Under the pieces are notes generated by a model that worked only from the letters and a program-made list of their open reading frames with translations, made no database searches and had not been told where the DNA came from. From NCBI GenBank assembly GCA_033345155.1, contig JAWPOG010000045.1, positions 5,795-69,794 on the forward strand: a stretch of DNA of 64,000 nucleotides, written 5' to 3'. Position numbers and translations under genes: made by a program. Source of the stretch: Alphaproteobacteria bacterium. Lineage in GTDB: Bacteria; Pseudomonadota; Alphaproteobacteria; Rs-D84. Positions 5 through 64,000 of the stretch are shown in pieces. Numbering within the stretch: the stretch's first letter is position 1; every line of letters begins with the position of its first letter.

Positions 5-1993
5 ATGGCAAAAAAATATTTAATTACATCTGCATTACCATACGTGAACAATAATTTACATATTGGTCATTTGATTGGTTGTTTGCTGCCAAGTGATGTT
101 TATGCACGTTTTTGTCGTGCAATGGGGCGTGATGTGTTGGTTGTGGCGGGGTCTGACGAACATGGTACCGCCAGTGAAATTGGTGCGTACAAAGAAAATA
201 TGCCTGTGGAAGATTATGTTGAAAAATATCGTGCGTATCAGTTGCAATCTGTCAAAGATTTTAATTTGTCTTTTGATTTATACGGTCGCACACACACAAA
301 AACACATGAAAAATTGATTCAAAGTTTATTCTTGCGCCTGCAAGAACAAGGTATGCTGGTTGAAAAAGTATCCATGCAACCATATTCCGTCAAAGAAGAA
401 AAATTCTTGGCGGACAGATTTGTTATCGGTACTTGTCCAAAGTGTGGATATGATCACGCATACGGAAACGAATGCGACAAATGTTTTGCGAGCTTGGAAC
501 CAGCACAATTGATAAATCCACACAGTGCTGTTGTACCAGATTCACCTGTGGAAATGCGTGAAACAAAGCACTTGTACTTTAAATACAGCGAAATGCAAGA
601 CGCATTACGCAAATGGATTGATTCACGTGTGGGATGGTCTAAAACTGCGTTAGCGATTGCGAATAAATGGCTGGACGAAGGGTTGCATGATGGCCCAATC
701 ACACGTGACTTAAAATGGGGAATTCCTGTCAACAAGCCTGGTTATGAAAACAAGGTTTTTTATGTATGGTTTGACGCACCGTGGGGTTATGTTTCAATTT
801 CACAAGACGCAAATAAAAACTGGGCAGATTGGTGGCATGGTGGTGATGATGTTCACTATGCTCAATTTATGGCCAAGGATAATGTGTCTTTCCATTCTAT
901 ATTCTTTCCTGCCCAAGAATTGGCGATGAACGACAACTGGAAAACAGTTGATACATTAAAAGGTTTTAATTTCTTAAACTTTGAAGGCGGCAAGGTTTCT
1001 AAATCAACAGGAAATGGGATTTTCTTGAATGAAGCGATTACAATTGCGCCGGCGGACACATGGCGTTATGCGCTGTTGGCCAGTGCGCCTGAAACAGACG
1101 ATACAGACTTTACTGTTTCCCGTTTTGCAGAAATTGTAAACAAGGATCTGAACGGTATGTTGGGAAATTTTGTCAGCCGTGTATGTAAACTGACCCAGAA
1201 AAATTTTGGAAACAATGTACCAAAATCTGGCGGCAAAAATTCAGGACTGGAATCACAAATAAATGAAAAAATATCAGAATTGACAAGTGCACTGGATGCA
1301 TGCGAATTCCGCAAATCTATTGCGGCACTGCGTGGGCTGTACGCAATTGGAAACGAATATATGACTAAAATGGAACCATGGGCGTTGGTAAAAAATGGTG
1401 AAACGGAAAAAGCAGGTGCGGTATTAAACGAATGTTTTCAGATGATTGATTTGTTTGCGCGTGTGTCTGCGCCATTTATCCCAGACGCGGCTGAAAAAAT
1501 GAAAAATATTTTCAAGTCCACACATGATTTGTCATGGCCAAAATCATACGAACATCGCATAGATGATGGCGCAGAATTCATTGTTCCTGAAAACTTGTTC
1601 AATCGCATTGATGATGAAACTGTCACAATGCTGGTTGAAAAATATACGGCAAAAAAAGAGGACATTTCTCCAAAACCAATTATCGCAGAAATTGTCGCCC
1701 TAGAAAATCATCCAACACGTGAAGATTTGCATGTGTTAAATGTAAATTATGGTGGTGATAAAAATGTACAGATTGTATGCGGAGCACCAAATGTACGCGT
1801 TGGTCTGCGTGGCGTATTGGCACCGGTTGGGGCAAAGTTACCAACATCAAAAAAACCAATGGCACAAAGAACGGTTGCGGGTGTTGAATCATTCGGTATG
1901 ATGTGCAGCGCACCGGAACTGGGGCTGTCTGGGGACGGTAAAAATATTATTGAATTGGGTGACGAATATAAAATCGGCGAAGAATATAAATAA
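5..1993 (+). CDS. metG: Methionyl-tRNA synthetase with C-terminal tRNA-binding (EMAP/Trbp111-like) domain
   Basis: 662-aa ORF. N-terminal class I HIGH motif (PYVNNNLHIGHLIG), KMSKS-like (KVSKS), and C-terminal ...VAGVESFGMMCS tRNA-binding domain. Confidence 0.95.
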   Translation: MAKKYLITSALPYVNNNLHIGHLIGCLLPSDVYARFCRAMGRDVLVVAGSDEHGTASEIGAYKENMPVEDYVEKYRAYQLQSVKDFNLSFDLYGRTHTKTHEKLIQSLFLRLQEQGMLVEKVSMQPYSVKEEKFLADRFVIGTCPKCGYDHAYGNECDKCFASLEPAQLINPHSAVVPDSPVEMRETKHLYFKYSEMQDALRKWIDSRVGWSKTALAIANKWLDEGLHDGPITRDLKWGIPVNKPGYENKVFYVWFDAPWGYVSISQDANKNWADWWHGGDDVHYAQFMAKDNVSFHSIFFPAQELAMNDNWKTVDTLKGFNFLNFEGGKVSKSTGNGIFLNEAITIAPADTWRYALLASAPETDDTDFTVSRFAEIVNKDLNGMLGNFVSRVCKLTQKNFGNNVPKSGGKNSGLESQINEKISELTSALDACEFRKSIAALRGLYAIGNEYMTKMEPWALVKNGETEKAGAVLNECFQMIDLFARVSAPFIPDAAEKMKNIFKSTHDLSWPKSYEHRIDDGAEFIVPENLFNRIDDETVTMLVEKYTAKKEDISPKPIIAEIVALENHPTREDLHVLNVNYGGDKNVQIVCGAPNVRVGLRGVLAPVGAKLPTSKKPMAQRTVAGVESFGMMCSAPELGLSGDGKNIIELGDEYKIGEEYK

Positions 1994-1994
1994 T

Positions 1995-3041
1995 ATGTCA
2001 GATATGCGTGTTGTTTTATTGTCTTGTTGCGCGCCATGTTCGTCGGGTGCAATAAAACAATTGGCAGAACATAAAATAGACGGCGTGTCTGACTTTATTG
2101 TTTTGTTTTACAATCCAAATATTTTTCCAGAATCTGAATATACAAAACGTATGAACGAGCAAATAAAGTACTGTGAACAGTTGGGTGTAAAATATGCTGT
2201 TCTGGAATATGACCATGACGCATGGCGTGATGCCGTTCGTGGGTTTGAGAACGCACCCGAACGCGGGGCGCGTTGCAGTCTGTGTTTTGAATACAGATTT
2301 CGTCGCGCGGAAAAATTTGCACGTGAAAACGGTTATAACGCGATTGCATCTGTATTGGGTGTGTCGCGTCATAAAAGTCAAACTCAGGTTGATAACGCCG
2401 CACAAAATGTTTTAAGACAAGATGTAAACGCAAAAAATTATCACGCAAAAAGATATACAAATAGGGCGTTGGCACAATCAAAATATCTTAAAAAAAATAT
2501 GACAGAGGCCGAGCGCTTATTATGGCATTATTTACGTGCAAGAAAGGATTTTTCTTTTAGAAAGCAAGCGCCGATTGGAAATTATGTTGTTGATTTTTTG
2601 TGTGTTAAAAAGAAACTAGTGATAGAATTGGATGCTGCACAACACGGCGATAAAGATAATTTTTTGCATGATATAGAACGGGACGCGTATTTAGAAAAGA
2701 ATGGTTATCGTGTTTTAAGATTTTGGAATGACGAGGTTTGTCGAGATATAAAAAAAGTGTTGAATACAATTGATGTGTTTGTGAACGACAATTGTTCAAG
2801 CCACCCCCTGTCGTCACAGTGTGTGCCGACATCCCCCGCCAAGGGCGGTGGAAATTTTATTGGCGGCCTTTCAGAATGCCCACCGCCCTTGGCGGGGGGT
2901 GGCCACGACAGTGGTCGGGGGGTGGCTGTTGAATATATGCCAATTAAATGGGATGAAAATTTACGCATTCAGATAAATCGTGCGTCAGACTTTTATCGTC
3001 AGAATTATTGTGGCTGTGAATTCAGTATCAGAAAGATATAA
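1995..3041 (+). CDS. queH: Epoxyqueuosine reductase QueH (DUF208) interrupted in-frame by a DUF559 endonuclease-like domain and a palindromic element
   Basis: ATG at 1995 (MSDMRVVLLSCCAPCS = QueH CCxPC motif). C-terminus ...FYRQNYCGCEFS is the QueH C-terminal Cys motif. The central segment KYLKKNMTEAERLLWHYLR...PIGNYVVDFLC...LVIELDAAQH...GYRVLRFWNDEV is a complete DUF559/Vsr-like domain. The ORF tool started 45 nt upstream at 1950. Confidence 0.8.
   Translation: MSDMRVVLLSCCAPCSSGAIKQLAEHKIDGVSDFIVLFYNPNIFPESEYTKRMNEQIKYCEQLGVKYAVLEYDHDAWRDAVRGFENAPERGARCSLCFEYRFRRAEKFARENGYNAIASVLGVSRHKSQTQVDNAAQNVLRQDVNAKNYHAKRYTNRALAQSKYLKKNMTEAERLLWHYLRARKDFSFRKQAPIGNYVVDFLCVKKKLVIELDAAQHGDKDNFLHDIERDAYLEKNGYRVLRFWNDEVCRDIKKVLNTIDVFVNDNCSSHPLSSQCVPTSPAKGGGNFIGGLSECPPPLAGGGHDSGRGVAVEYMPIKWDENLRIQINRASDFYRQNYCGCEFSIRKI
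2801..2925. repeat. About 125-bp imperfect palindromic element (RPE/MITE-like) lying in-frame inside queH
   Basis: Left arm ccaccccctgtcgtcacagtgtgtgccgacatcccccgccaagggcggtgg; right arm ccaccgcccttggcggggggtggccacgacagtggtcggggggtgg. The reverse complement of the right arm ends in the identical cccccgccaagggcggtgg. GC-rich relative to the rest of the gene. Confidence 0.7.
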
Positions 3042-29780: not shown

Positions 29781-30184
29781 CACTATTGTATTTCTCTTTC
29801 TGCTCTTAAAAACTATAATTCTCCCCAATCCCCAGTCCCACGGCCACACCAAATGCCCCAGGTCCCCATGTCCAGTGCTTTGTGCAGCAAAGATTCCAAT
29901 ACTGTTGCGTGTATTTGGTGCGAACATTGGGTTTGCGTATGTTGTCAGTGGCGATATAATCAGGCAAAAACATCAGTACGTGTTTCATGTGAAAAATTAT
30001 GCCACTTAAATGCCCGCATATCTATTTGATAAAAATCTTAAATATAGCATAAAACACATGACTAAACTATTTACAGAGCGCCAAAAAATTGATATAATCA
30101 CAATAAACATACATGCGTTGTGCATGGTGTTTGTGTATAGAAAGGTTGGGTTTCTGGGTTGTCCAGAACACAAGGAGAGTTTTT

Positions 30185-32377
30185 ATGAGAAATCAAAAAG
30201 TTGCGAATTCTGTAAAAAATGCGATTGGGACGGTCTTTTTGTTGACTGGTGCTTTTTTTGTATGTTCGACAATGTTGTCAATTCGTTCGGTTTTTGCAGA
30301 TCCGGTTGCGCCGGCAGACCCTGTTGCATCGCAGACAGGCCCCAGGTCCGATGGGGTGGTGCGTTCTGGTCGTGCCAATGCGCGCGCCAACGCAACACGT
30401 ACAACATCATCAAATCCATCTCGCACAACCAGATCACGCAGCACTGTTCAGCCTCGTGCGGTTTCTTCCCGCGCGAATGCGACTGTGGCGGGACGCACAA
30501 ATGTCTCGCCATCTCGCAATGTTGTTTCTCGTGCGAATGTGGTTGCGAATCGTGCGAACGCTTCAAATGTACGTTCGGTTCGTGCACGAACTGCTACGAC
30601 GGATGCAACAAACGCTTCGCGTATTTCATTGCAGGGTAATGCTATTCGTGGGTCCAAGCTGTCCACTACGGGGGGTGTGACTTCCACTTATTCGTATCTC
30701 AGCAGCAAATTGCGCACAGGCAACTATTCAAACATCATTGATGCATCCACCGGATTGATTTCTGCGGACGCGTTCAACAATTGTATGGAATCTTATTATA
30801 CCTGTATGGATGAAATTTGTACTGCACGTAATGCGGCCCAGCGTCGTTGTGCGTGCGCCGGTCGTGTCAGGGCATTCGCCGATGCCGAAACCGCGCTAGA
30901 GACCGCTAACGAAGAATTGATTAAGGTTTCTGGTGAATTGGCTTTGTTGGTTGCGAACAAGGGCAAGGATATTTCCGATGCTTTCCAGTTAACGGACGCA
31001 GAAAAGGTTTTGAATTGTGTTTCATGGCAAGAAGTGACAGGTAAATATGGTCTGTCTTCTGAAGAGGCTGTAGACTGGTGCTATAATCACGGTTTTTATG
31101 GCAGTAATGGTGGCAAGGTTTCTTCGTGTGCAAAGCCATCATATTGTTCAGAATCCGGTAATAATTTTGGGTTTGATGTGACAAATCTTGATGGCAACAG
31201 TACTGATATCCTTGCGTCATTACAATCGTGGGCCGACGCCAAGGAACAGACAATAACCATCCTTGACCAAGATGAAGATGGTTTGTTGGCATCTTTTGAG
31301 AACCTGTCGTCTGTAATCAGCGGACTGGCCGGCATTGGCGGTACATTAGATTCATCAGACGATTTAAAGGACAGCCTGGCCGAGACCTGGGGCTATGAAT
31401 TGTTTGAATATGCGCATAATAATGTTTGCGCACGTGTTTTGGATTCTTGTTTTAACGGCATTTACGAGGCTTGTGGAACCCCGCCATCTGGCACCAAGTG
31501 CAGCAGTGGTACGGCCCAATGTCCATATAATTATAACAGCAAGATAAGCGTAAACAATTCTGGTACATACGAATTGAACTTTGTGACACCGTCCAGTGGT
31601 TATTCGGCAACAAATTCTGCAGCTTGTTTTGGTTATGCATCCACATCAGGTGACCCTTATTCAAGTTTGCGCGGTCCTGTTGCAGACGCTCGTCGCAGTA
31701 TTATGCAGAAATACGCATTGGATGCAAATGCAGATTGCGATGCTTATGGCGAACAGTTGCGTGCCACGGCCCAGAACATTGGTTATCAAAAGGTTGCAGC
31801 GCAACAGGCCCTGCAGCAAAAGCGTCTGGAATTTGCAAACGAAGAACGTGACACAATCCTGGCCAATGCGTTGCAGGCAGGAACAAATTTTGAAGCGTGT
31901 ATCAGTGAACTGTACGAATGTTATGATGCCCAGCTAGACAGTCACGGCCCAGGCAAGAATACTGTTTGGACGGTATCTCGTATCCGCACATATTGCGCCC
32001 AGGTTGCAAATGTTCCTTCTTGCTATGAAGAAATGATATGCACGCCATCTTCGGCTCAGTTCAAGGCGGTTGTCGATGTTGCTGACAAAAGCAATTGTTT
32101 CAGCAGTCAGGACTACACAACAAACACCTGTCGTAACATTGTAACCCTGAACGAGATTATCAATGGTACAGGTGCAATAGGTGACGAAGTCAATGATATC
32201 AACAATTTGATTTTGGCTGGCACATTATACAATAACAACAGCAATGTTAATTCCGCTGCTTTGCGTGAATATTGCTTGCGCGATGCAATCGGTCTTGACG
32301 AAAATGACGAGGTTGCAATCCGAACATGGCTAAAAACAGAATGGGATAATATGCAGGCCGCAGCAAATGAACAGTAA
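30185..32377 (+). CDS. Large secreted cysteine-rich protein with N-terminal (S/V)RAN-repeat low-complexity region (731 aa)
   Basis: RBS ggagag, ATG at 30185. Signal-anchor AIGTVFLLTGAFFVCSTMLSI. Residues about 60-170 are R/S/N/A/T/V-rich with reiterated SRANA/SRANV units. The remaining ~560 aa contain more than 30 Cys in CxC/CxxC patterns. GC-rich codon usage. Confidence 0.7.
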   Translation: MRNQKVANSVKNAIGTVFLLTGAFFVCSTMLSIRSVFADPVAPADPVASQTGPRSDGVVRSGRANARANATRTTSSNPSRTTRSRSTVQPRAVSSRANATVAGRTNVSPSRNVVSRANVVANRANASNVRSVRARTATTDATNASRISLQGNAIRGSKLSTTGGVTSTYSYLSSKLRTGNYSNIIDASTGLISADAFNNCMESYYTCMDEICTARNAAQRRCACAGRVRAFADAETALETANEELIKVSGELALLVANKGKDISDAFQLTDAEKVLNCVSWQEVTGKYGLSSEEAVDWCYNHGFYGSNGGKVSSCAKPSYCSESGNNFGFDVTNLDGNSTDILASLQSWADAKEQTITILDQDEDGLLASFENLSSVISGLAGIGGTLDSSDDLKDSLAETWGYELFEYAHNNVCARVLDSCFNGIYEACGTPPSGTKCSSGTAQCPYNYNSKISVNNSGTYELNFVTPSSGYSATNSAACFGYASTSGDPYSSLRGPVADARRSIMQKYALDANADCDAYGEQLRATAQNIGYQKVAAQQALQQKRLEFANEERDTILANALQAGTNFEACISELYECYDAQLDSHGPGKNTVWTVSRIRTYCAQVANVPSCYEEMICTPSSAQFKAVVDVADKSNCFSSQDYTTNTCRNIVTLNEIINGTGAIGDEVNDINNLILAGTLYNNNSNVNSAALREYCLRDAIGLDENDEVAIRTWLKTEWDNMQAAANEQ

Positions 32378-33442: not shown

Positions 33443-34165
33443 CTAGATTGCGCGCGCCACACGACAAAATGTTACGCCGTAAACAGCTGTTGCGCCCGCC
33501 TGAATCAGCACTCGTCTCAGTTCGGAAAATGTTGCGCCAGTTGTCATAACATCATCGACCAGTAAAATCCGTTTACCTCGAATTTTATCAGGCCTGGTAA
33601 CCCAGAAGCATCCACGAATATTTTCTGCGCGTTCGCGTGCATTTTTATGTCCCATATCATCACGATATTTACGATGAACTGAATCCAAATCCATTTTTAT
33701 ACCTGTGGCCTTGGCGATTGGTCGTGCCAATAATGTGGCCTGGTTGTATCCACGTTTGAACAGCCTGCGATTTGCCAAAGGCACCGGCATAATAACATCT
33801 GCGTCTATTTGAATATCGTGCAAAGCCAATATCATTGCACGTGCCATAAAACGCGCATAGCGGATTTTTCCACCATGCTTAAACGGCAACATGGCCGCAC
33901 GTGACGCATCATCATACACGCACGCAGACCGTATCCAGTCCAATTCAGATTTTCCAGCCGCACAAACCGGACACAGTGGCATGCCACCCAAATCCAAATC
34001 TGCTGGGAACGGATATCCGCATTTGACGCATTTTGGGTTGTTAATCCAGTTCAACTTGGTCCAACATGTTGCGCATAATTCGCCGTGTGTTAAAACCGGC
34101 GTATCACACAAAGGACACGCCGGCGGAAATATAAAACTGGTTAAATCAGACAGTATTTTTACCAC
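33443..34165 (-). CDS. comF: ComF/GntX-family phosphoribosyltransferase-domain protein
   Basis: N-terminal Zn-finger CPLCDTP...CATCW...CVKCGYPF and C-terminal PRTase motif ILLVDDVMTTGATFSE. Confidence 0.8.
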   Translation of the reverse strand: MVKILSDLTSFIFPPACPLCDTPVLTHGELCATCWTKLNWINNPKCVKCGYPFPADLDLGGMPLCPVCAAGKSELDWIRSACVYDDASRAAMLPFKHGGKIRYARFMARAMILALHDIQIDADVIMPVPLANRRLFKRGYNQATLLARPIAKATGIKMDLDSVHRKYRDDMGHKNARERAENIRGCFWVTRPDKIRGKRILLVDDVMTTGATFSELRRVLIQAGATAVYGVTFCRVARAI

Positions 34166-58373: not shown

Positions 58374-59027
58374 TTATCCTGTTATTTTCGCAATTGCGAT
58401 TGCTGTGGCCAGTTCTGCCCGCAATATTGTTTTACCCAGTGAAATCCCACATGCGCCCGCTGCGTCCAGCGCGGCAAATTCCGCATCAGAAAATCCACCC
58501 TCGGGCCCAACTAATATAGTTGTAATATTTTGTTTGTTGCAATTTGATTCTTTTCCGTATGCTGCACGTTCATCAGCAAACACAACATTTGATAAATCTA
58601 AATCGGCAAATTTTATTGGGGATAAAATCTCTGGCACAGTATTACGATTTGATTGCTCGGACGCCTCGACCACGATTTTTTTCATTCGTTCCCAGTTGAT
58701 ATGATGTGCGGTTGTACGATTTGTTATGACAGGTTGAATTTTTGCCACACCCATTTGTGTTGCCATGTTCAGCAAATCGTCCGTCCGTTTAATAGGAGCA
58801 AACATCAGGGTTATGTTGTTTGACGGGTCTGTATGCGCTGTTTTTTCACCGATGTACAAACAGTTATTATCAGCCAGTGTTGCAAAATATTCGTTTCCAT
58901 TGCCAAATACCAAACATTCATGTGTTCGCATTACGCGTGACAGATAGTGTGTTACATCCCGTTCCACAGGTATAATTTGCCCTGATTGAATATCTTGGCC
59001 GACGAAGATTCGTGGAATATTTTTCAT
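58374..59027 (-). CDS. rsmE: 16S rRNA (uracil1498-N3)-methyltransferase RsmE
   Basis: PUA-like N-terminus and SPOUT knot (ILVGPEGGFSDAE). ATG chosen at 59027. The ORF tool extended to a TTG at 59054. Confidence 0.8.
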   Translation of the reverse strand: MKNIPRIFVGQDIQSGQIIPVERDVTHYLSRVMRTHECLVFGNGNEYFATLADNNCLYIGEKTAHTDPSNNITLMFAPIKRTDDLLNMATQMGVAKIQPVITNRTTAHHINWERMKKIVVEASEQSNRNTVPEILSPIKFADLDLSNVVFADERAAYGKESNCNKQNITTILVGPEGGFSDAEFAALDAAGACGISLGKTILRAELATAIAIAKITG

Positions 59028-59083
59028 ATTTTTTTTATTTCCGTATTTTTTCAATGTCTTTTTTCTGATATAATATTAACACC

Positions 59084-61342
59084 ATGTCAGCAAAATTCAA
59101 CTTTTTATCAGCGTCGGGTAAGGGCAAGGGATTAAATATATTCCGGTCGTCTGCGTACAAAGAACACGAGCAAACGCCACTGGCGCGTGAATTTTGGTCG
59201 ATACGCTGGTCGATTATCATATGGATTATTGCTGCGATAATGGTTGCGGCATCTTTTCCGATTGAACACATTTGGCGGTATGGTTGGTCGCCGGCATCGA
59301 AACATTGGTTGATGATATATTTGCAAAATTTGTTTGCGTCGGGTGGGCTGTCTGTGTTGGCGGAATTACCGGCATGGATTGGACGATCTGTGATGCGCCC
59401 CGATATTGAATGCATTACACCACTGTTGCCAATTATTGGGTACTATTTTCTGTCTGATGCAACAATGACAGATGAATTTAACCCCCACAGCAAGGATAAG
59501 TTCGACGAAAAAACCGCACGTGTCGCAACCGCAGATGATATTAAGAAAATGGGCCAGGATTACAAGAACAAAGAAGGTTTGTTCAAGGGTTTTATGATGG
59601 TTCTGGGATTCTTCAAGGGCAAACCATTAATGTTTGATGAATGTCTGTCTACATTATGCGTTGCGCCCCCCGGGACCGGTAAAACCAAGGGTGTTGTGGA
59701 ACCGACAATTTTGGAATGCGATACGGTTTCCATGATTATTAACGACCCAAAACCTGAATTAAAGCAGACAACATCCGGATATCGTTCAACAATTGGCCCC
59801 GTATTTATTCTGAACTGGGCGGGTCAGGACGACCCTGCGCGTGGTGTTTACTATCCGTCATGGAATCCTTTGTCGCCGGGGCATGTGCCTTTTAATACCG
59901 AAGAACGCGACCTGTACGTAGATTCGATTGTGAATACATTAATTCCGGACCGTTCATCGTCTTCGGCGGACCCGCACTGGACAATTACGGGGCGCGCAGC
60001 ACTGACGGGATACATTCAATTCATTATTTCCAAGGTTGAACGTGCCAAGGCTGACGACTATTTCTATGCCCGTATATCAAACGGCACATTTAATGCCGAA
60101 GATGCAGCTGTGTTGTCTGATTATTATTTATCAATGAATTCGGACCCGAACGCCTATGCGGCGCATGCCTTGTTGCAACGGGGGGAACTAAATGCGATGA
60201 ATTATGTTCATGTCGGAACATGGGAACACATTCCTGATGCATGGCGTGGACGCGAGGCATCTTTTTCCATGATTCTGGATTGGCTGAATGCATCACAAAT
60301 TGCCATCGCCGAAGATATCGAAAACCGTCGCCGCCAGGGTGACCAGATGGTCATGATGGCAGACCCTGCCAAAGATATGTTTATGAAAGCTGTGGACGAA
60401 GCGCGCAGATACGCCTATTCTCATCGTGCAATCCAGGAATTAACCCAATTGGCCAGTACCCCCGACAAAGAACGCGGTTCTATTATGTCAACGGCGCAGT
60501 CGGGGCTGAATATATTCCGTAATGCCGCCGTGCGCAATCGTACAAGTCATTCAGACTTTCACTTTTCTGACCTGCGCGGTATGGTCGATCCGCGCGACGG
60601 CAAGATTAAACCAATTACAGTTTATTTGTCTATTAACATGGTTGATGCCCAGGCGTTGAATCCGATAACGGCAATATTCATTGAATTAATGTCGAATTTC
60701 TTGTTGGCGCACAAGCCCGGCGACATGCATCATGGACAAAAGCTTGGGCCGTGTCCAGTCTTGTTTGCGATTGACGAAATGCCAAAAATGCAAAAGCTGC
60801 GTGCGATTATCGAAGGGCCAGATCTTGGGCGTGGACAGAAAATTTCATACCTAATTATCGGCCAGGACCTGCACCAGATTCAGGAAAAATATGGTGCCGA
60901 TGCAGCCGCGACCATTATTTCAACAACAGCCGCGAAAATTGTTATGCGTCAAAATGACCCAGATACCGCAGACCGTTTTTCAAAAATGATGGGGTATAAA
61001 ATGAAAAAGAAAACCGTCAAAGGACCAGACGGCAAAGACAAAGAAGAAACCACCGAGGAATTACTGTTCACGCCAATGGATATCATGAAAATGAATCCCG
61101 AAGAACAATTGGTGATTATCCAGGGACACTATAACCGTCCGATTAAGGCAGACCAAGAACGGTGGTATAAAAACACAACTGCAATCCAGAAAAAAATGTA
61201 TGCCAAGGTTCAAATGGGTGAATGTGCGCCACTGCCTGAATTCTTGGTGCCGGCACATCACAGGGCGTTGGGGTATTCTGGTACGCCACGTATATATGAC
61301 CCCATGACCCAGCAAATCAAAGAATTGGTTTCAGCACAATAA
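59084..61342 (+). CDS. virD4: Type IV secretion coupling protein VirD4/TraG family (T4CP)
   Basis: N-terminal TM pair, Walker A VAPPGTGKTKGVV, Walker B-like LFAIDEMP, TraG/VirD4 all-alpha domain. tataat immediately upstream. Confidence 0.85.
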   Translation: MSAKFNFLSASGKGKGLNIFRSSAYKEHEQTPLAREFWSIRWSIIIWIIAAIMVAASFPIEHIWRYGWSPASKHWLMIYLQNLFASGGLSVLAELPAWIGRSVMRPDIECITPLLPIIGYYFLSDATMTDEFNPHSKDKFDEKTARVATADDIKKMGQDYKNKEGLFKGFMMVLGFFKGKPLMFDECLSTLCVAPPGTGKTKGVVEPTILECDTVSMIINDPKPELKQTTSGYRSTIGPVFILNWAGQDDPARGVYYPSWNPLSPGHVPFNTEERDLYVDSIVNTLIPDRSSSSADPHWTITGRAALTGYIQFIISKVERAKADDYFYARISNGTFNAEDAAVLSDYYLSMNSDPNAYAAHALLQRGELNAMNYVHVGTWEHIPDAWRGREASFSMILDWLNASQIAIAEDIENRRRQGDQMVMMADPAKDMFMKAVDEARRYAYSHRAIQELTQLASTPDKERGSIMSTAQSGLNIFRNAAVRNRTSHSDFHFSDLRGMVDPRDGKIKPITVYLSINMVDAQALNPITAIFIELMSNFLLAHKPGDMHHGQKLGPCPVLFAIDEMPKMQKLRAIIEGPDLGRGQKISYLIIGQDLHQIQEKYGADAAATIISTTAAKIVMRQNDPDTADRFSKMMGYKMKKKTVKGPDGKDKEETTEELLFTPMDIMKMNPEEQLVIIQGHYNRPIKADQERWYKNTTAIQKKMYAKVQMGECAPLPEFLVPAHHRALGYSGTPRIYDPMTQQIKELVSAQ

Positions 61343-61403
61343 TAAAATATAAATACAATTCAAGGTGCGTCAATTTATTAACCCCCGCAATTGCGGGGGA
61401 TTT

Positions 61404-62249
61404 TTATGGACACAAAGCCAATTGTTTTAATACATTCTGCACGTCATTATTCACAGAAACGGTTATCTTGCGCCGCAATCCATCTATGTATGTATAGTTG
61501 AATTTTGTATTCTTAAATTCTGGATATGCCTGGTACATTTGTTGAAATGGCGCCAACATAGCCCGGAACCATTGCCGACTTCGACACAGGCAACCGTTGC
61601 GCACATCTGCCACCACCACAGAAGTAGCTGTATTTGGATACATTGCGTCCAAATCATGGTCAGACATCATCAGACAGCGTGCCCCAAATTCGTAAAAATT
61701 CGCATCGTCAGACAAGAATTTATAAACTAAACCATCGCTGGCCCCTGCCTGCTTCAAAGCGTATGTCATACCGTCTGTACAGCATGCCTGGGCGGAACGC
61801 ATTAACATCTTGTACCGTTCTAATAATGGTGCGGCCTCGGGCATGTTTGCGTTAAAACCCTCGTTGTAATCGGCGGCATACAAAAATTCTGAAACCGACA
61901 CATCATTCAGTCGTGCGCTGCGTGGCGACACTGTTTCCCGAATAATTGGTTTTTTACGCCAAATATCACATTCTGCTGTGGTTTCAAATGGACACCAATA
62001 ATCAGCAATTGTAGTGTCAATCATCATATCGTATGCCCCGGTTGTAGTTCCAGTCATATCGCTGATGACATAATTTTGGTTCATCATATCTTGCTGATAA
62101 AATCCCGCATCGGTTTGTGTCCATTCGGTATCCATCCCAATTTCCATCGAATTGACATCACAGTCCGTACCGACACAATCAGACGCATGTGAATTTTGCA
62201 GCCCGTAAAGACACAACAAAGACGACAAAATAAATATCTTGGCTTTCAT
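61404..62249 (-). CDS. Secreted cysteine-rich hypothetical protein (281 aa)
   Basis: Signal peptide IFILSSLLCLYGLQNSHA and about 13 Cys, including CVGTDC, ACCTDG, GCLCRSRQWF. Confidence 0.5.
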   Translation of the reverse strand: MKAKIFILSSLLCLYGLQNSHASDCVGTDCDVNSMEIGMDTEWTQTDAGFYQQDMMNQNYVISDMTGTTTGAYDMMIDTTIADYWCPFETTAECDIWRKKPIIRETVSPRSARLNDVSVSEFLYAADYNEGFNANMPEAAPLLERYKMLMRSAQACCTDGMTYALKQAGASDGLVYKFLSDDANFYEFGARCLMMSDHDLDAMYPNTATSVVVADVRNGCLCRSRQWFRAMLAPFQQMYQAYPEFKNTKFNYTYIDGLRRKITVSVNNDVQNVLKQLALCP

Positions 62250-62363
62250 ACCTGTTATTATATCACAAAAATATAATGGATTAAAGTGCGTTTTTTATTG
62301 TTCAAAGCATATAAAAACCTTTATAATAATACTGTCTTTATAACTATAACCCAGGGGGAACTG

Positions 62364-63218
62364 ATGAAAAAAATATCAATACTGGCTTTATTGTCTGTGT
62401 TTGCTATACCTGCGTATGCGACTGATTCCAATGTTGCGCCGACCCAACACCAGGAAACGGCACAAACCGAACATGGTTTTTTACATGGGGTTCAGGTTGG
62501 GGTTGGCTTGTCCGCCACATCTGGCTTGAATGGTTTTGTTGGCTATGCTAACAAAGATTTTGATTCTTTTTGGGCCAAACGCTTGGGGTTAAGATTTGAT
62601 TTTGCCACTACCAAGCCGATTAAATCATTGATTAATGACGGCATAGATTCTGTGTTGGGCGATGACGGAATTGATTTAGGCGATTCTTTGACCATTAACA
62701 AGGGCAAAGCTGATGCGCATCACTATGCAGCGATGGTAGATTTTTATCCATTTGGCGACGCATGGTTTTTTGGTGGATGGCGCATAAGCGGTGGTTATTA
62801 TATGGGTGAAATGAATATGGTTGCGGATATCGCGGGTACAGTTGACGGCAGTACAGGCTATTATGAATTTGAACTGAACGGCAATAAATATGCCTATGCG
62901 GGTAATTCTGTCCATGGCACAGCGCAGTTGGATTGGGAATATCGTGGCCCATACCTTGGCACAGGTTTTGATTTGGGCTTGTTTGGTGGGGTTAAGATTT
63001 ATCTTGATGCTGGTGTTGTATTTACGAACAAGGCAGCCCAGTTGTCATTGGATGTTCCAACGGATAATTTGCAACAGTGGGATGGTTCTGCATGGGTTGC
63101 ATTTGATGCTGTGGATTTGGAAACAGTTATATCAGAAACATTATCAGACGCCCAGTCTGAATTGGATGATTTCAAATTTTATCCTGTGGTCAAGATGGGG
63201 TTCATGTATCGTTTTTGA
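62364..63218 (+). CDS. Outer-membrane beta-barrel protein (C-terminal ...MGFMYRF)
   Basis: RBS aggggga, signal peptide ISILALLSVFAIPAYA, terminal Phe. Same architecture as the 52102-53064 protein. Confidence 0.6.
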   Translation: MKKISILALLSVFAIPAYATDSNVAPTQHQETAQTEHGFLHGVQVGVGLSATSGLNGFVGYANKDFDSFWAKRLGLRFDFATTKPIKSLINDGIDSVLGDDGIDLGDSLTINKGKADAHHYAAMVDFYPFGDAWFFGGWRISGGYYMGEMNMVADIAGTVDGSTGYYEFELNGNKYAYAGNSVHGTAQLDWEYRGPYLGTGFDLGLFGGVKIYLDAGVVFTNKAAQLSLDVPTDNLQQWDGSAWVAFDAVDLETVISETLSDAQSELDDFKFYPVVKMGFMYRF

Positions 63219-63262
63219 TTGCAACAACCATAATAAAAGACCCGCAATTGCGGGTCTTTTAT

Positions 63263-64000
63263 TTATCTCATTCCGCCTGGTCCACCACGCATCGGGTTCA
63301 TTTGTTTTTTCGAGCCAGATGTCGTCATCCCAGTGCGTCCGACAATAACCTTGTCCCCCATCTGAATTTCATCTGATATAATTTCAGTTTCGGTTGCGGT
63401 TGTCAGCCCCTTTGAGTAAGGAATCATAATAACATTATCATCACGCAATATCGCCAAATGAGATACTGGTGTTGCGCCATTTGTAATCTCTGGATCCAAA
63501 AAGCTTGCGAAACTGCGCACCAAAAATGCCGAATTTGCGGCACGCCACACATTGCTTTTTTCGGAAATTATAATCGTTACAAACGCAGTCATTCCCGGCA
63601 TCAATCTTAAATTGCTGTTATCTACATCAATTACAACGGTATAAACAACAACATTAGAAGTGGTTGTTGGCGACAAACGAATCTGGCGCACGATGCCATC
63701 AAAAGTTTCTGCAGGATACGCATCAACGGTAAATGTGACAGGTTGTCCTTCTTGGATAACCCCGATATCTGCTTCGGACACAGCGGTTTCGATTTGCATT
63801 TTGGTCAAATCTTCGGCAATTTCGAACAGGTCGGGTGTCTGGAACGAAGCTGCCACAGTCTGTCCTACATCAACTTTGCGCGAAATAACGGTGCCATCAA
63901 CCGGCGACACAATTGTTGCATACCCTAAATTTGTTGTTGCACGGTCATATGTGGACTGTGCGCGTTTGACGGATTGTTCTGCTTGTTCGTATTGTGTTTG
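63263..64000 (-). CDS. Efflux periplasmic adaptor subunit (HlyD/MacA family), 3' two-thirds only
   Basis: The ORF is open through the window end (continues past the first M at 63910: ...QYEQAEQSVKRAQSTYDRATTNLGYATIVSPVDGTVISRKVDVGQTV... beta-barrel/MP motifs). The start lies beyond 64000. Confidence 0.75.
   Translation of the reverse strand, partial: QTQYEQAEQSVKRAQSTYDRATTNLGYATIVSPVDGTVISRKVDVGQTVAASFQTPDLFEIAEDLTKMQIETAVSEADIGVIQEGQPVTFTVDAYPAETFDGIVRQIRLSPTTTSNVVVYTVVIDVDNSNLRLMPGMTAFVTIIISEKSNVWRAANSAFLVRSFASFLDPEITNGATPVSHLAILRDDNVIMIPYSKGLTTATETEIISDEIQMGDKVIVGRTGMTTSGSKKQMNPMRGGPGGMR

Follow-up and report, generated by a model that had tools for sequence, protein, structure and literature searches.

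The 64-kb stretch of contig JAWPOG010000045.1 analysed here (the window) belongs to a gut alphaproteobacterium of the Candidatus Enterousia type, order Rs-D84, with a genome of about 0.9 Mb, and carries near its end virD4, a gene whose 752-aa product is predicted to be a type IV coupling protein (T4CP). Enterousia belongs to the order Rs-D84, and its genomes are smaller than 1 Mb, have no tricarboxylic acid cycle or respiratory chain, and encode few recognisable transporters (PMC12306168). On one side virD4 adjoins rsmE on the opposite strand, the first gene of a conserved TPR-rluB-rsmE block that lies upstream of virD4 and diverges from it; on the other side it faces cys281, a convergent gene for a 281-aa signal-peptide protein rich in cysteine (3.9% Cys). 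A first-pass annotation of this DNA had described the two neighbours in the same way, and the open reading frame (ORF) map and Pfam agreed with it (Table 1).

Table 1. Genes and sequence elements of the window referred to in the text (positions count from the first nucleotide of the window).
Feature	Position	Strand	Basis and remarks
virD4, predicted type IV coupling protein, 752 aa	59084..61342	+	Pfam, motifs, hydropathy, dN/dS, orthologues
rsmE, 16S rRNA methyltransferase	58374..59054	-	Pfam Methyltrans_RNA (3.9e-33); synteny in 80/80 loci
TATAAT hexamer, candidate -10 box	59069..59074	+	read from the sequence; 9 nt ahead of the virD4 start codon
GC-rich palindromic hairpin CCCCCGCAATTGCGGGGG followed by a T-run, intrinsic-terminator-like	61382..61399	.	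between convergent virD4 and cys281; also in L001
cys281, Sec-signal-peptide protein, 281 aa, 11 Cys	61404..62249	-	convergent with virD4; 485 homologues
omp310, signal-peptide protein, no Cys, C-terminal ...MGFMYRF	62364..63218	+	listed ORF 62286..63218, 310 aa
Second palindromic hairpin AATAAAAGACCCGCAATTGCGGGTCTTTTATT	63232..63263	.	between omp310 and the convergent hlyD-like gene
cys731 (the "731-aa protein")	30185..32377	+	ORF 30113..32377; most likely start ATG 30185, 730 aa

The assignment of the 752-aa ORF to VirD4, already proposed in the first-pass annotation, was upheld by its Pfam domains and its intact Walker motifs. The protein matched T4SS-DNA_transf (1.9e-55; 189 bits against a cutoff of 20.1), TraG-D_C (6e-20; 71.9 bits) and TrwB_AAD_bind (7e-16; 58.5 bits), and thus carries the domains by which T4CPs are recognised (PF02534/PF10412/PF12696). 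Walker A (APPGTGKT) lies at about residues 193-200 and Walker B (PVLFAIDEMPKM) at about residues 558-569, and both APPGTGKT and PVLF..DEMPKM were invariant across 52 aligned orthologues, in keeping with the GxxGxGKT/S and hhhhDE forms of the two motifs. Hydropathy analysis revealed an N-terminal membrane anchor: residues 36-64 are strongly hydrophobic, and moderately hydrophobic stretches follow before about residue 125. These features identify the product as a bona fide, motif-intact and membrane-anchored T4CP. Judged by NCBIfam cutoffs, the protein fell outside the curated T4CP subfamilies tested (VirD4, IncP TraG, Ti TraG, F TraD and CD1115), scored 92.2 bits with the equivalog PRK13897 (cutoff 728), and had no match at E<=1e-3 in a sequence search of the PDB. 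Because it stayed below the cutoff in every NCBIfam T4CP model and had no PDB match, Enterousia VirD4 represents a divergent, uncurated T4CP subfamily.

We scanned one genome per GTDB species and found 312 species-level VirD4 relatives, and the best 80 of the 312 (69-96% identity, full length) were used for locus comparisons and labelled L001 and so on. All 80 came from Candidatus Enterousia or gut alphaproteobacterial metagenome-assembled genomes (MAGs), and one of them is a closed chromosome of 958,618 bp (OZ007020.1). The window and the 80 loci together amount to 1.69 Mb and hold about 143-260 gene families, or ~16-30% of the Enterousia repertoire. The order TPR-rluB-rsmE-virD4 was kept in all 80 loci, and in nearly every one of them the amino-acid identity of VirD4 exceeded that of its housekeeping neighbours. 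The ratio of nonsynonymous to synonymous substitution rates (dN/dS) was about 0.03 for virD4 (compared with L002-L004), against 0.08-0.16 for TPR, rluB and rsmE. No relaxase gene, integrase gene or tRNA junction was found near virD4, the sole tRNA of the window being at 9.5 kb, and the GC content was unremarkable, with no anomaly. Given its fixed synteny, invariant Walker motifs, low dN/dS and unremarkable GC, virD4 is a functional core gene and not the remnant of a mobile element. These comparisons show that virD4 is a vertically inherited part of the core genome, under very strong purifying selection, and does not belong to a mobile element.

Secretion genes and the downstream side of virD4

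The first-pass annotation had called virD4 an orphan, neither preceded nor followed by virB genes, and had noted that a virB cluster immediately outside the window would overturn this. Pfam analysis of all large ORFs in the 64-kb window, which covers 59 kb upstream of virD4, detected no virB, relaxase or other T4SS (type IV secretion system) gene, and the large ORFs were assigned solely housekeeping functions. The DNA beyond the end of the window was assessed via L001, which is 96% identical to and colinear with the window and reaches 10 kb past virD4. These 10 kb contained no virB gene, so that the overturning condition did not arise on the one side of virD4 that is close to the window edge; they held hlyD-like and tolC-like genes and small ORFs, together with one gene that we take, from its N-terminal sequence, to be ppdK-like. 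We then ran tblastn against the window and the 80 loci (1.69 Mb) with VirB2-B11 from three T4SS clusters and a MobA fragment as probes; no T4SS gene was found, the sole match being a T2SSE pilus ATPase in L004, L008 and L009. Linkage of virD4 to a VirB4-containing apparatus or to a relaxase was thus seen neither in the window, nor in the 10 kb of L001, nor in the 80 loci, and the description of virD4 as an orphan is correct at this scale, that is, across about 1.7 Mb of flanking DNA from 80 species.

Some candidates were followed up individually. The weak VirB11-like tblastn match belonged to the T2SSE ATPase of a PilO/T2SSE/T2SSF pilus-type cluster and not to a T4SS. This cluster (L004:16660-21368, likewise in L008 and L009), similar to a type IVb pilus or type II secretion system (T2SS), adjoins tolC/hlyD genes about 4-9 kb downstream of virD4 and comprises PAP_PilO, a 232-aa ORF without family, a 545-aa T2SSE ATPase and a T2SSF platform protein; pili are not mentioned in the published Rs-D84 genome description. 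The large unannotated ORFs of the loci, considered as possible VirB4, were instead LptD, FtsK, AsmA-like, a YadA-type adhesin, phage-tail-fibre-like, or unknowns without P-loop families.

Downstream of virD4, about two dozen different genes occurred across the 80 loci, which marks this side of the gene as a recurrent rearrangement breakpoint. The commonest arrangement was virD4 followed on the same strand, 1-46 bp further on, by a TPR-like lipoprotein of ~400 aa (cl126) and an LpoB equivalog (cl127); this order was present in 20 or more loci (L040:12278-14078; L026, L038, L043, L046, L048-L051, L054, L058, L062, L063, L069-L076), the basal VirD4 clade included. The virD4-cl126-cl127 arrangement is probably ancestral, because it occupies the basal clade of the VirD4 tree and recurs in several other clades, and it is possibly an operon. 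The LpoB assignment rests on TIGR02722 (131.4 bits, cutoff 110.55), Pfam LpoB (6.7e-33) and a lipobox, LTAC, and cl126 is a TPR-like lipoprotein without family assignment. Neither resembles a VirB component, the hhalign probability against VirB2-B11 being <=1.9%.

In the window, the 29-bp gap between virD4 and the divergent rsmE contains the TATAAT hexamer with no matching -35 element, and a consensus scan listed no full promoter there. At the other end of virD4, the hairpin before cys281 and the hairpin behind omp310 have a common 12-nt palindromic core, CCGCAATTGCGG, which in 1.69 Mb occurred solely at these two terminators and once in L001. Such rarity rules out a repeat or uptake element; the hairpins, which bracket cys281-omp310, may be boundary marks of a relocated module. 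virD4 and cys281 are convergent with a hairpin terminator between them, and they are adjacent only in the window and L001, the cys281-omp310 pair being located otherwise elsewhere. Therefore the two genes are separate transcription units that were joined by a lineage-specific rearrangement.

Two families of cysteine-rich exported proteins

The cys281 product begins with the signal peptide MKAKIFILSSLLCLYGLQNSHA|SD, and its gene ends 62 bp from virD4. We found 485 homologues, all from gut alphaproteobacterial MAGs, which makes this a clade-restricted family, and an exhaustive profile search of the family gave 123 clusters at 50% identity. The conserved module is the C-terminal ~200 aa, with invariant CPFE..C, ACCTDGM, RCLMM and GCLCRGRQWF and a terminal CP (alignment A1), and a cleavable-type N-terminal signal peptide is kept across the family. 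The invariant cysteine pattern suggests periplasmic or extracellular disulfides. Most members have 390-480 aa. The copies in the window, L001 and P0001 are a short form without ~130-180 central residues that are found in almost all others (P0002-P0120), the absent region reading LLSIKPVPED...WDGxHG...VDWRDGVPIWDDS...RARVEELLAPKKPS; the short form is under purifying selection (dN/dS 0.098 compared with L001). The protein had no Pfam, NCBIfam or PDB sequence match. Its AlphaFold2 model was mostly helical, with a predicted local distance difference test score (pLDDT) of 85-97 for residues ~110-280, and Foldseek found no significant fold match to it in the PDB (best E=0.27).

Divergent from cys281 lies omp310, whose ORF is listed from GTG 62286, the likely start being ATG 62364 (MKKISILALL...). 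It had no Pfam or NCBIfam match, and its signal peptide and C-terminal aromatic residue suggest that it is probably an outer-membrane beta-barrel protein. The two genes form a conserved pair, with the same arrangement in L085/L086, where the omp310 orthologue is 56% identical. The pair adjoined virD4 in two of 81 genomes, those of the window and L001, and elsewhere it was situated near uvrD, RNase T and rluD-like genes. In one Enterousia contig, no gene was called in the 4.7 kb directly upstream of the cys281 orthologue (L083:5277-10001), a stretch that might hold an rRNA operon or a large gene missed by the gene caller.

The second cysteine-rich protein, cys731, is built of a signal or anchor peptide, ~170 aa of low-complexity sequence rich in R/S/T/N, and a helical region with 25 Cys. 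Its 1,201 homologues likewise all came from gut alphaproteobacterial MAGs, and this clade-restricted family has no Pfam domain. Cysteine makes up 3.9% of cys281 and 3.4% of cys731, compared with 0.62% of the large housekeeping ORFs of the window.

A resemblance between a segment of each protein had been taken in the first-pass annotation as the mark of one family of cysteine-rich exported proteins, possibly linked to a T4SS. Both strings exist, GCLCRSRQWFRAM at 61557-61595 (-) in cys281 and RRCACAGRVRAFAD at 30842-30883 (+) in the ORF 30113..32377, whereas their likeness is below chance: the motif alignment scored 10 (BLOSUM62) over 13 residues, and 300 of 300 shuffles of the 731-aa protein did better (mean best 28.7). 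The highest-scoring 13-mer of the actual protein pair (31) lies elsewhere than the motif and is itself unremarkable, with 24% of shuffles reaching that score. The pattern C.C..R..[FA], which had been defined after the fact, arose in 0.7% of shuffles. Each motif is invariant inside its own family (A1 for cys281, A2 for cys731), which is why both had caught the eye. The whole proteins gave a BLASTP E=1.5, and hhalign of the family profiles A1 and A2 gave a probability of 0.4% (E=0.15), with an aligned stretch that excludes the motif. The AlphaFold2 model of cys731 had a pLDDT of 44.9, too low for a fold comparison with the confidently modelled C-terminal domain of cys281. The proposed single family was thus not borne out: the search for further members returned two separate, well-conserved families (485 and 1,201 matches) with no detectable homology.

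The suggested connection with a T4SS did not hold either, given the adjacency in two of 81 genomes, the terminator between the genes, the Sec signal peptides and a lack of enrichment. Counting ORFs with >=3% Cys as cysteine-rich, we found four among 78 neighbours of virD4 (5.1%), against 5.7% of all ORFs. Nor does cys281 look like a VirD4 substrate, since it has a Sec signal peptide and shows no conserved linkage to or co-transcription with the T4CP. T4CPs take up their substrates in the cytoplasm, so that signal-peptide, disulfide-type proteins such as cys281 and cys731 are poor candidates for substrates of VirD4. The sole textbook case, to our knowledge, of a signal-peptide, cysteine-containing protein that leaves the cell by a T4SS is pertussis toxin, exported by Ptl. 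Because Ptl has no VirD4 and its substrate is taken up in the periplasm, a VirD4 beside a Sec-exported protein is no evidence of a substrate relation. Taken together, cys281 and cys731 appear to represent two unrelated, clade-specific families of Sec-exported envelope or surface proteins, presumably with disulfides, neither of them linked to virD4. Both families, like the cys281-omp310 pair, are abundant, conserved and structurally unassigned envelope proteins of the clade that could take part in surface interactions and are otherwise unremarkable.

The cysteine-rich ORFs of these genomes fall into many unrelated clusters. Further unrelated, extremely cysteine-rich secreted ORFs were seen at L005:12491-14044, L020:12323-13033, L003:13385-14542 and L076:14146-14898, among them one of 517 aa with 50 Cys and one of 236 aa with 17 Cys. 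This amounts to a large repertoire of exported and presumably disulfide-bonded proteins in a bacterium that lives anaerobically in the gut.

Possible roles of a solitary coupling protein

The annotated T4CPs nearest to Enterousia VirD4 are those of conjugative alphaproteobacterial megaplasmids (for example Erythrobacter aureus NZ_CP031358, Microvirga pMVF16-3 and Sphingosinicella NZ_CP035502), which match about 80% of the protein at 32-34% identity, and they have in common with it T4SS-DNA_transf, the TrwB all-alpha domain, TraG-D_C, the N-terminal anchor and the Walker motifs. The megaplasmid gene is the last of a contiguous virB2-B3-B4-...-B8-B9-B10-B11-virD4 cluster with a MobA/MobL relaxase, whereas the Enterousia gene is chromosomal, solitary, set among housekeeping genes and fixed over the whole genus or order. 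As the nearest annotated T4CPs close full virB2-B11 clusters that include a relaxase, this type of T4CP has its ancestral setting in a canonical T4SS. In Rickettsiales, which are host-dependent alphaproteobacteria with reduced genomes, the genes of the rvh T4SS belong to the core genome, are inherited vertically and are scattered among several places on the chromosome, and of the known systems it is the closest functional parallel to a virD4 that is chromosomal and conserved. Rickettsiales virD4 remains within a virB8-B9-B10-B11-virD4 operon; Enterousia virD4, in contrast, has no vir neighbour, no vir gene was seen in the sampled DNA of its clade, and it scores 92 bits where VirD4 equivalogs require 728. 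The orphan T4CPs of integrative mobilizable elements likewise have no adjacent mating-pair-formation apparatus. They are accompanied by a relaxase, an origin of transfer (oriT) and an integrase and are patchily distributed, whereas for Enterousia virD4 no relaxase was found, the synteny is fixed, and selection is stronger than on the rRNA-modification neighbours.

By analogy with rvh we tentatively favour the reading that VirD4 works for a T4SS whose genes lie at unlinked loci, to which we give a probability of roughly 0.45-0.5. Like T4CPs elsewhere, VirD4 would then form a hexameric ATPase in the inner membrane, take up substrates from the cytoplasm (effector proteins or a nucleoprotein complex) and pass them on to a translocation channel. 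The channel, encoded at unlinked loci like the dispersed rvh T4SS, would support the partner-dependent way of life of these bacteria with their reduced metabolism. The cys281 and cys731 proteins would reach the periplasm or the surface via Sec, independently of VirD4. The ancestral downstream neighbours of virD4 were probably the genes of two envelope lipoproteins, the TPR-like lipoprotein and LpoB, and in the lineage of the window a rearrangement put a pre-existing cys281-omp310 module there instead. Several observations weigh against a dispersed T4SS. The Enterousia DNA that was sampled yielded no virB gene, but as it holds only ~16-30% of the gene families of the clade, this decides neither for nor against a dispersed T4SS. 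VirD4 scored below the curated cutoff in all ten NCBIfam T4CP models that it matched (best CD1115, 136.8 bits against 250), and the partners of so divergent a protein may be non-canonical. The tight adjacency of virD4 and the lipoprotein genes (1-46 bp) could reflect a functional link outside T4SS coupling. A VirB4-profile search of a 5.8-billion-protein database returned nothing attributable to Enterousia, although this search was word-limited and had no taxon filter and is therefore uninformative. Its profile was built from the operons of the nearest T4CP relatives, and the 43 matches were the plasmid clade and four distant VirB4s, two of which could be set aside as Enterousia proteins (one from an uncultured Campylobacter, one from a 52%-GC element with its own VirD4). 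We found nothing on a T4SS in the literature on Enterousia/Rs-D84 and nothing relevant in the literature on orphan T4CPs. The paper reconstructing Rs-D84 metabolism mentions no secretion system (PMC12306168).

The same gaps feed the rival view that Enterousia has no VirB-type T4SS and keeps the solitary VirD4 for a T4SS-independent role, as an ATPase or translocase for a type IVb-pilus/T2SS-like machine or for lipoprotein partners, or for the T4SS of a co-resident cell or element. No virB gene, relaxase gene or VirB4-sized unknown turned up in the window, L001 or about 1.7 Mb of flanks, virD4 is monocistronic here, non-T4SS lipoprotein genes follow it closely in the probably ancestral order, its sequence falls under every curated T4CP subfamily cutoff, and genes like those of type IVb pili (PilO, T2SSE, T2SSF) occur in the clade; the order-wide genome survey also names no secretion system (PMC12306168). 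On the other hand, the sampling reached about 16-30% of gene families, and the closest T4CP relatives are all in full T4SS clusters. Neither cl126 nor LpoB, a peptidoglycan-synthase activator, has VirB similarity, and their adjacency to virD4 may reflect genome compaction and is broken in most lineages, that of the window included. We also know of no functional T4CP that works without a VirB4-type machine. We rate a T4SS-independent role as less likely than a dispersed T4SS, though as its main rival. We give a similar probability to the wider reading that a VirB4-type T4SS is missing from the whole Enterousia/Rs-D84 radiation (at least 300 species with genomes of about 0.75-1 Mb), in which a solitary, motif-intact T4CP would nevertheless be retained under stronger purifying selection than its rRNA-modification neighbours, working alone or with a non-T4SS envelope partner such as the ancestral lipoproteins on the same strand or the type IVb-pilus-like apparatus. 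The original proposal, in which cys281 and cys731 form one family of effectors or accessory parts of a VirD4-dependent T4SS, could draw on the fact that both proteins are enriched in Cys 5-6 times over background, carry signal peptides, are restricted to the clade with this virD4 and each have one CxC followed by Arg that is invariant in the family, as well as on the 62 bp between cys281 and virD4. It is very improbable, as neither BLASTP nor profile-profile comparison detected homology and the motif likeness is below chance, the virD4-cys281 adjacency is confined to two of 81 genomes with no enrichment of cysteine-rich ORFs (4/78 against 5.7%), the convergent genes are separated by a terminator, Sec signal peptides with periplasmic disulfides are incompatible with cytoplasmic recruitment by a T4CP, and Ptl, the exporter of a Sec-delivered disulfide-bonded substrate, has no VirD4. 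That virD4 might be a decaying, functionless remnant of an integrated conjugative or mobilizable element would fit the missing T4SS neighbours, orphan T4CPs being typical of mobilizable elements. Yet the reading frame is full-length, the motifs are invariant in 52 or more orthologues, dN/dS is 0.03, the gene is kept in a 0.9-Mb genome and in 300 or more species within fixed housekeeping synteny, and neither a relaxase, integrase or tRNA junction nor a GC anomaly is near it, which leaves hardly any probability for decay. T4CPs and FtsK are homologous ring ATPases and these genomes are highly reduced, so VirD4 might conceivably stand in for the chromosome translocase FtsK/SpoIIIE; this, too, has next to no probability, for an Enterousia relative encodes FtsK in full, with its alpha, motor and gamma domains (Pfam 2.7e-59; L016:1291-3543), which rules out the replacement for at least one member of the clade.

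With the cysteine-rich effector family tied to an orphan VirD4 having failed, it makes a poor seed for a follow-up on T4SS-linked cysteine-rich proteins. What survives is that in an uncultured, metabolically dependent gut lineage with genomes of <1 Mb, a T4CP is among the most conserved genes and stands apart from a secretion apparatus. Potential novelty is confined to one question, whether virB genes scattered elsewhere in these genomes accompany the solitary virD4. If a dispersed T4SS is present, Enterousia would join Rickettsiales as a reduced-genome lineage dependent on type IV secretion, and effectors or DNA would then presumably be delivered to a partner cell within the animal gut; if there is no T4SS, this would be the first case known to us of a core, T4SS-independent coupling protein.

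Other genes of the window and the clade

The housekeeping genes identified by Pfam in the window were metG, queH, fabD/G, mnmG, ileS, nth, lpxD, nusA, infB, rlmN, lptD/F/G, lolCDE-like genes, der, a comF-like gene, PBP1a, mraY, ftsW, murG, tolC/acrB, gyrA, pyk and fba. The ORF for the epoxyqueuosine reductase QueH (1950-3041, +) contains a DUF559/REase_MTES_1575 endonuclease-like domain at residues ~174-277, with QueH matches on both sides, an apparent domain insertion or fusion. The ComF-type protein (33443-34165, -) combines a double zinc ribbon with a phosphoribosyltransferase domain; its gene and the pilus-type genes of relatives may point to a capacity for DNA uptake.

Two further proteins were observed in the loci. 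A 717-aa ORF at L035:16023-18176 (shorter in L036:15706-16761), in chromosomal context, has an N-terminus that matches the N-terminal domain of the phage T7 tail fibre (Pfam 1.3e-06). At L069:20036-21901 (-), a repetitive protein of 621 aa carries a YadA-like membrane anchor, as in trimeric autotransporter adhesins, and adds to the evidence that the clade has a repertoire for surface attachment.

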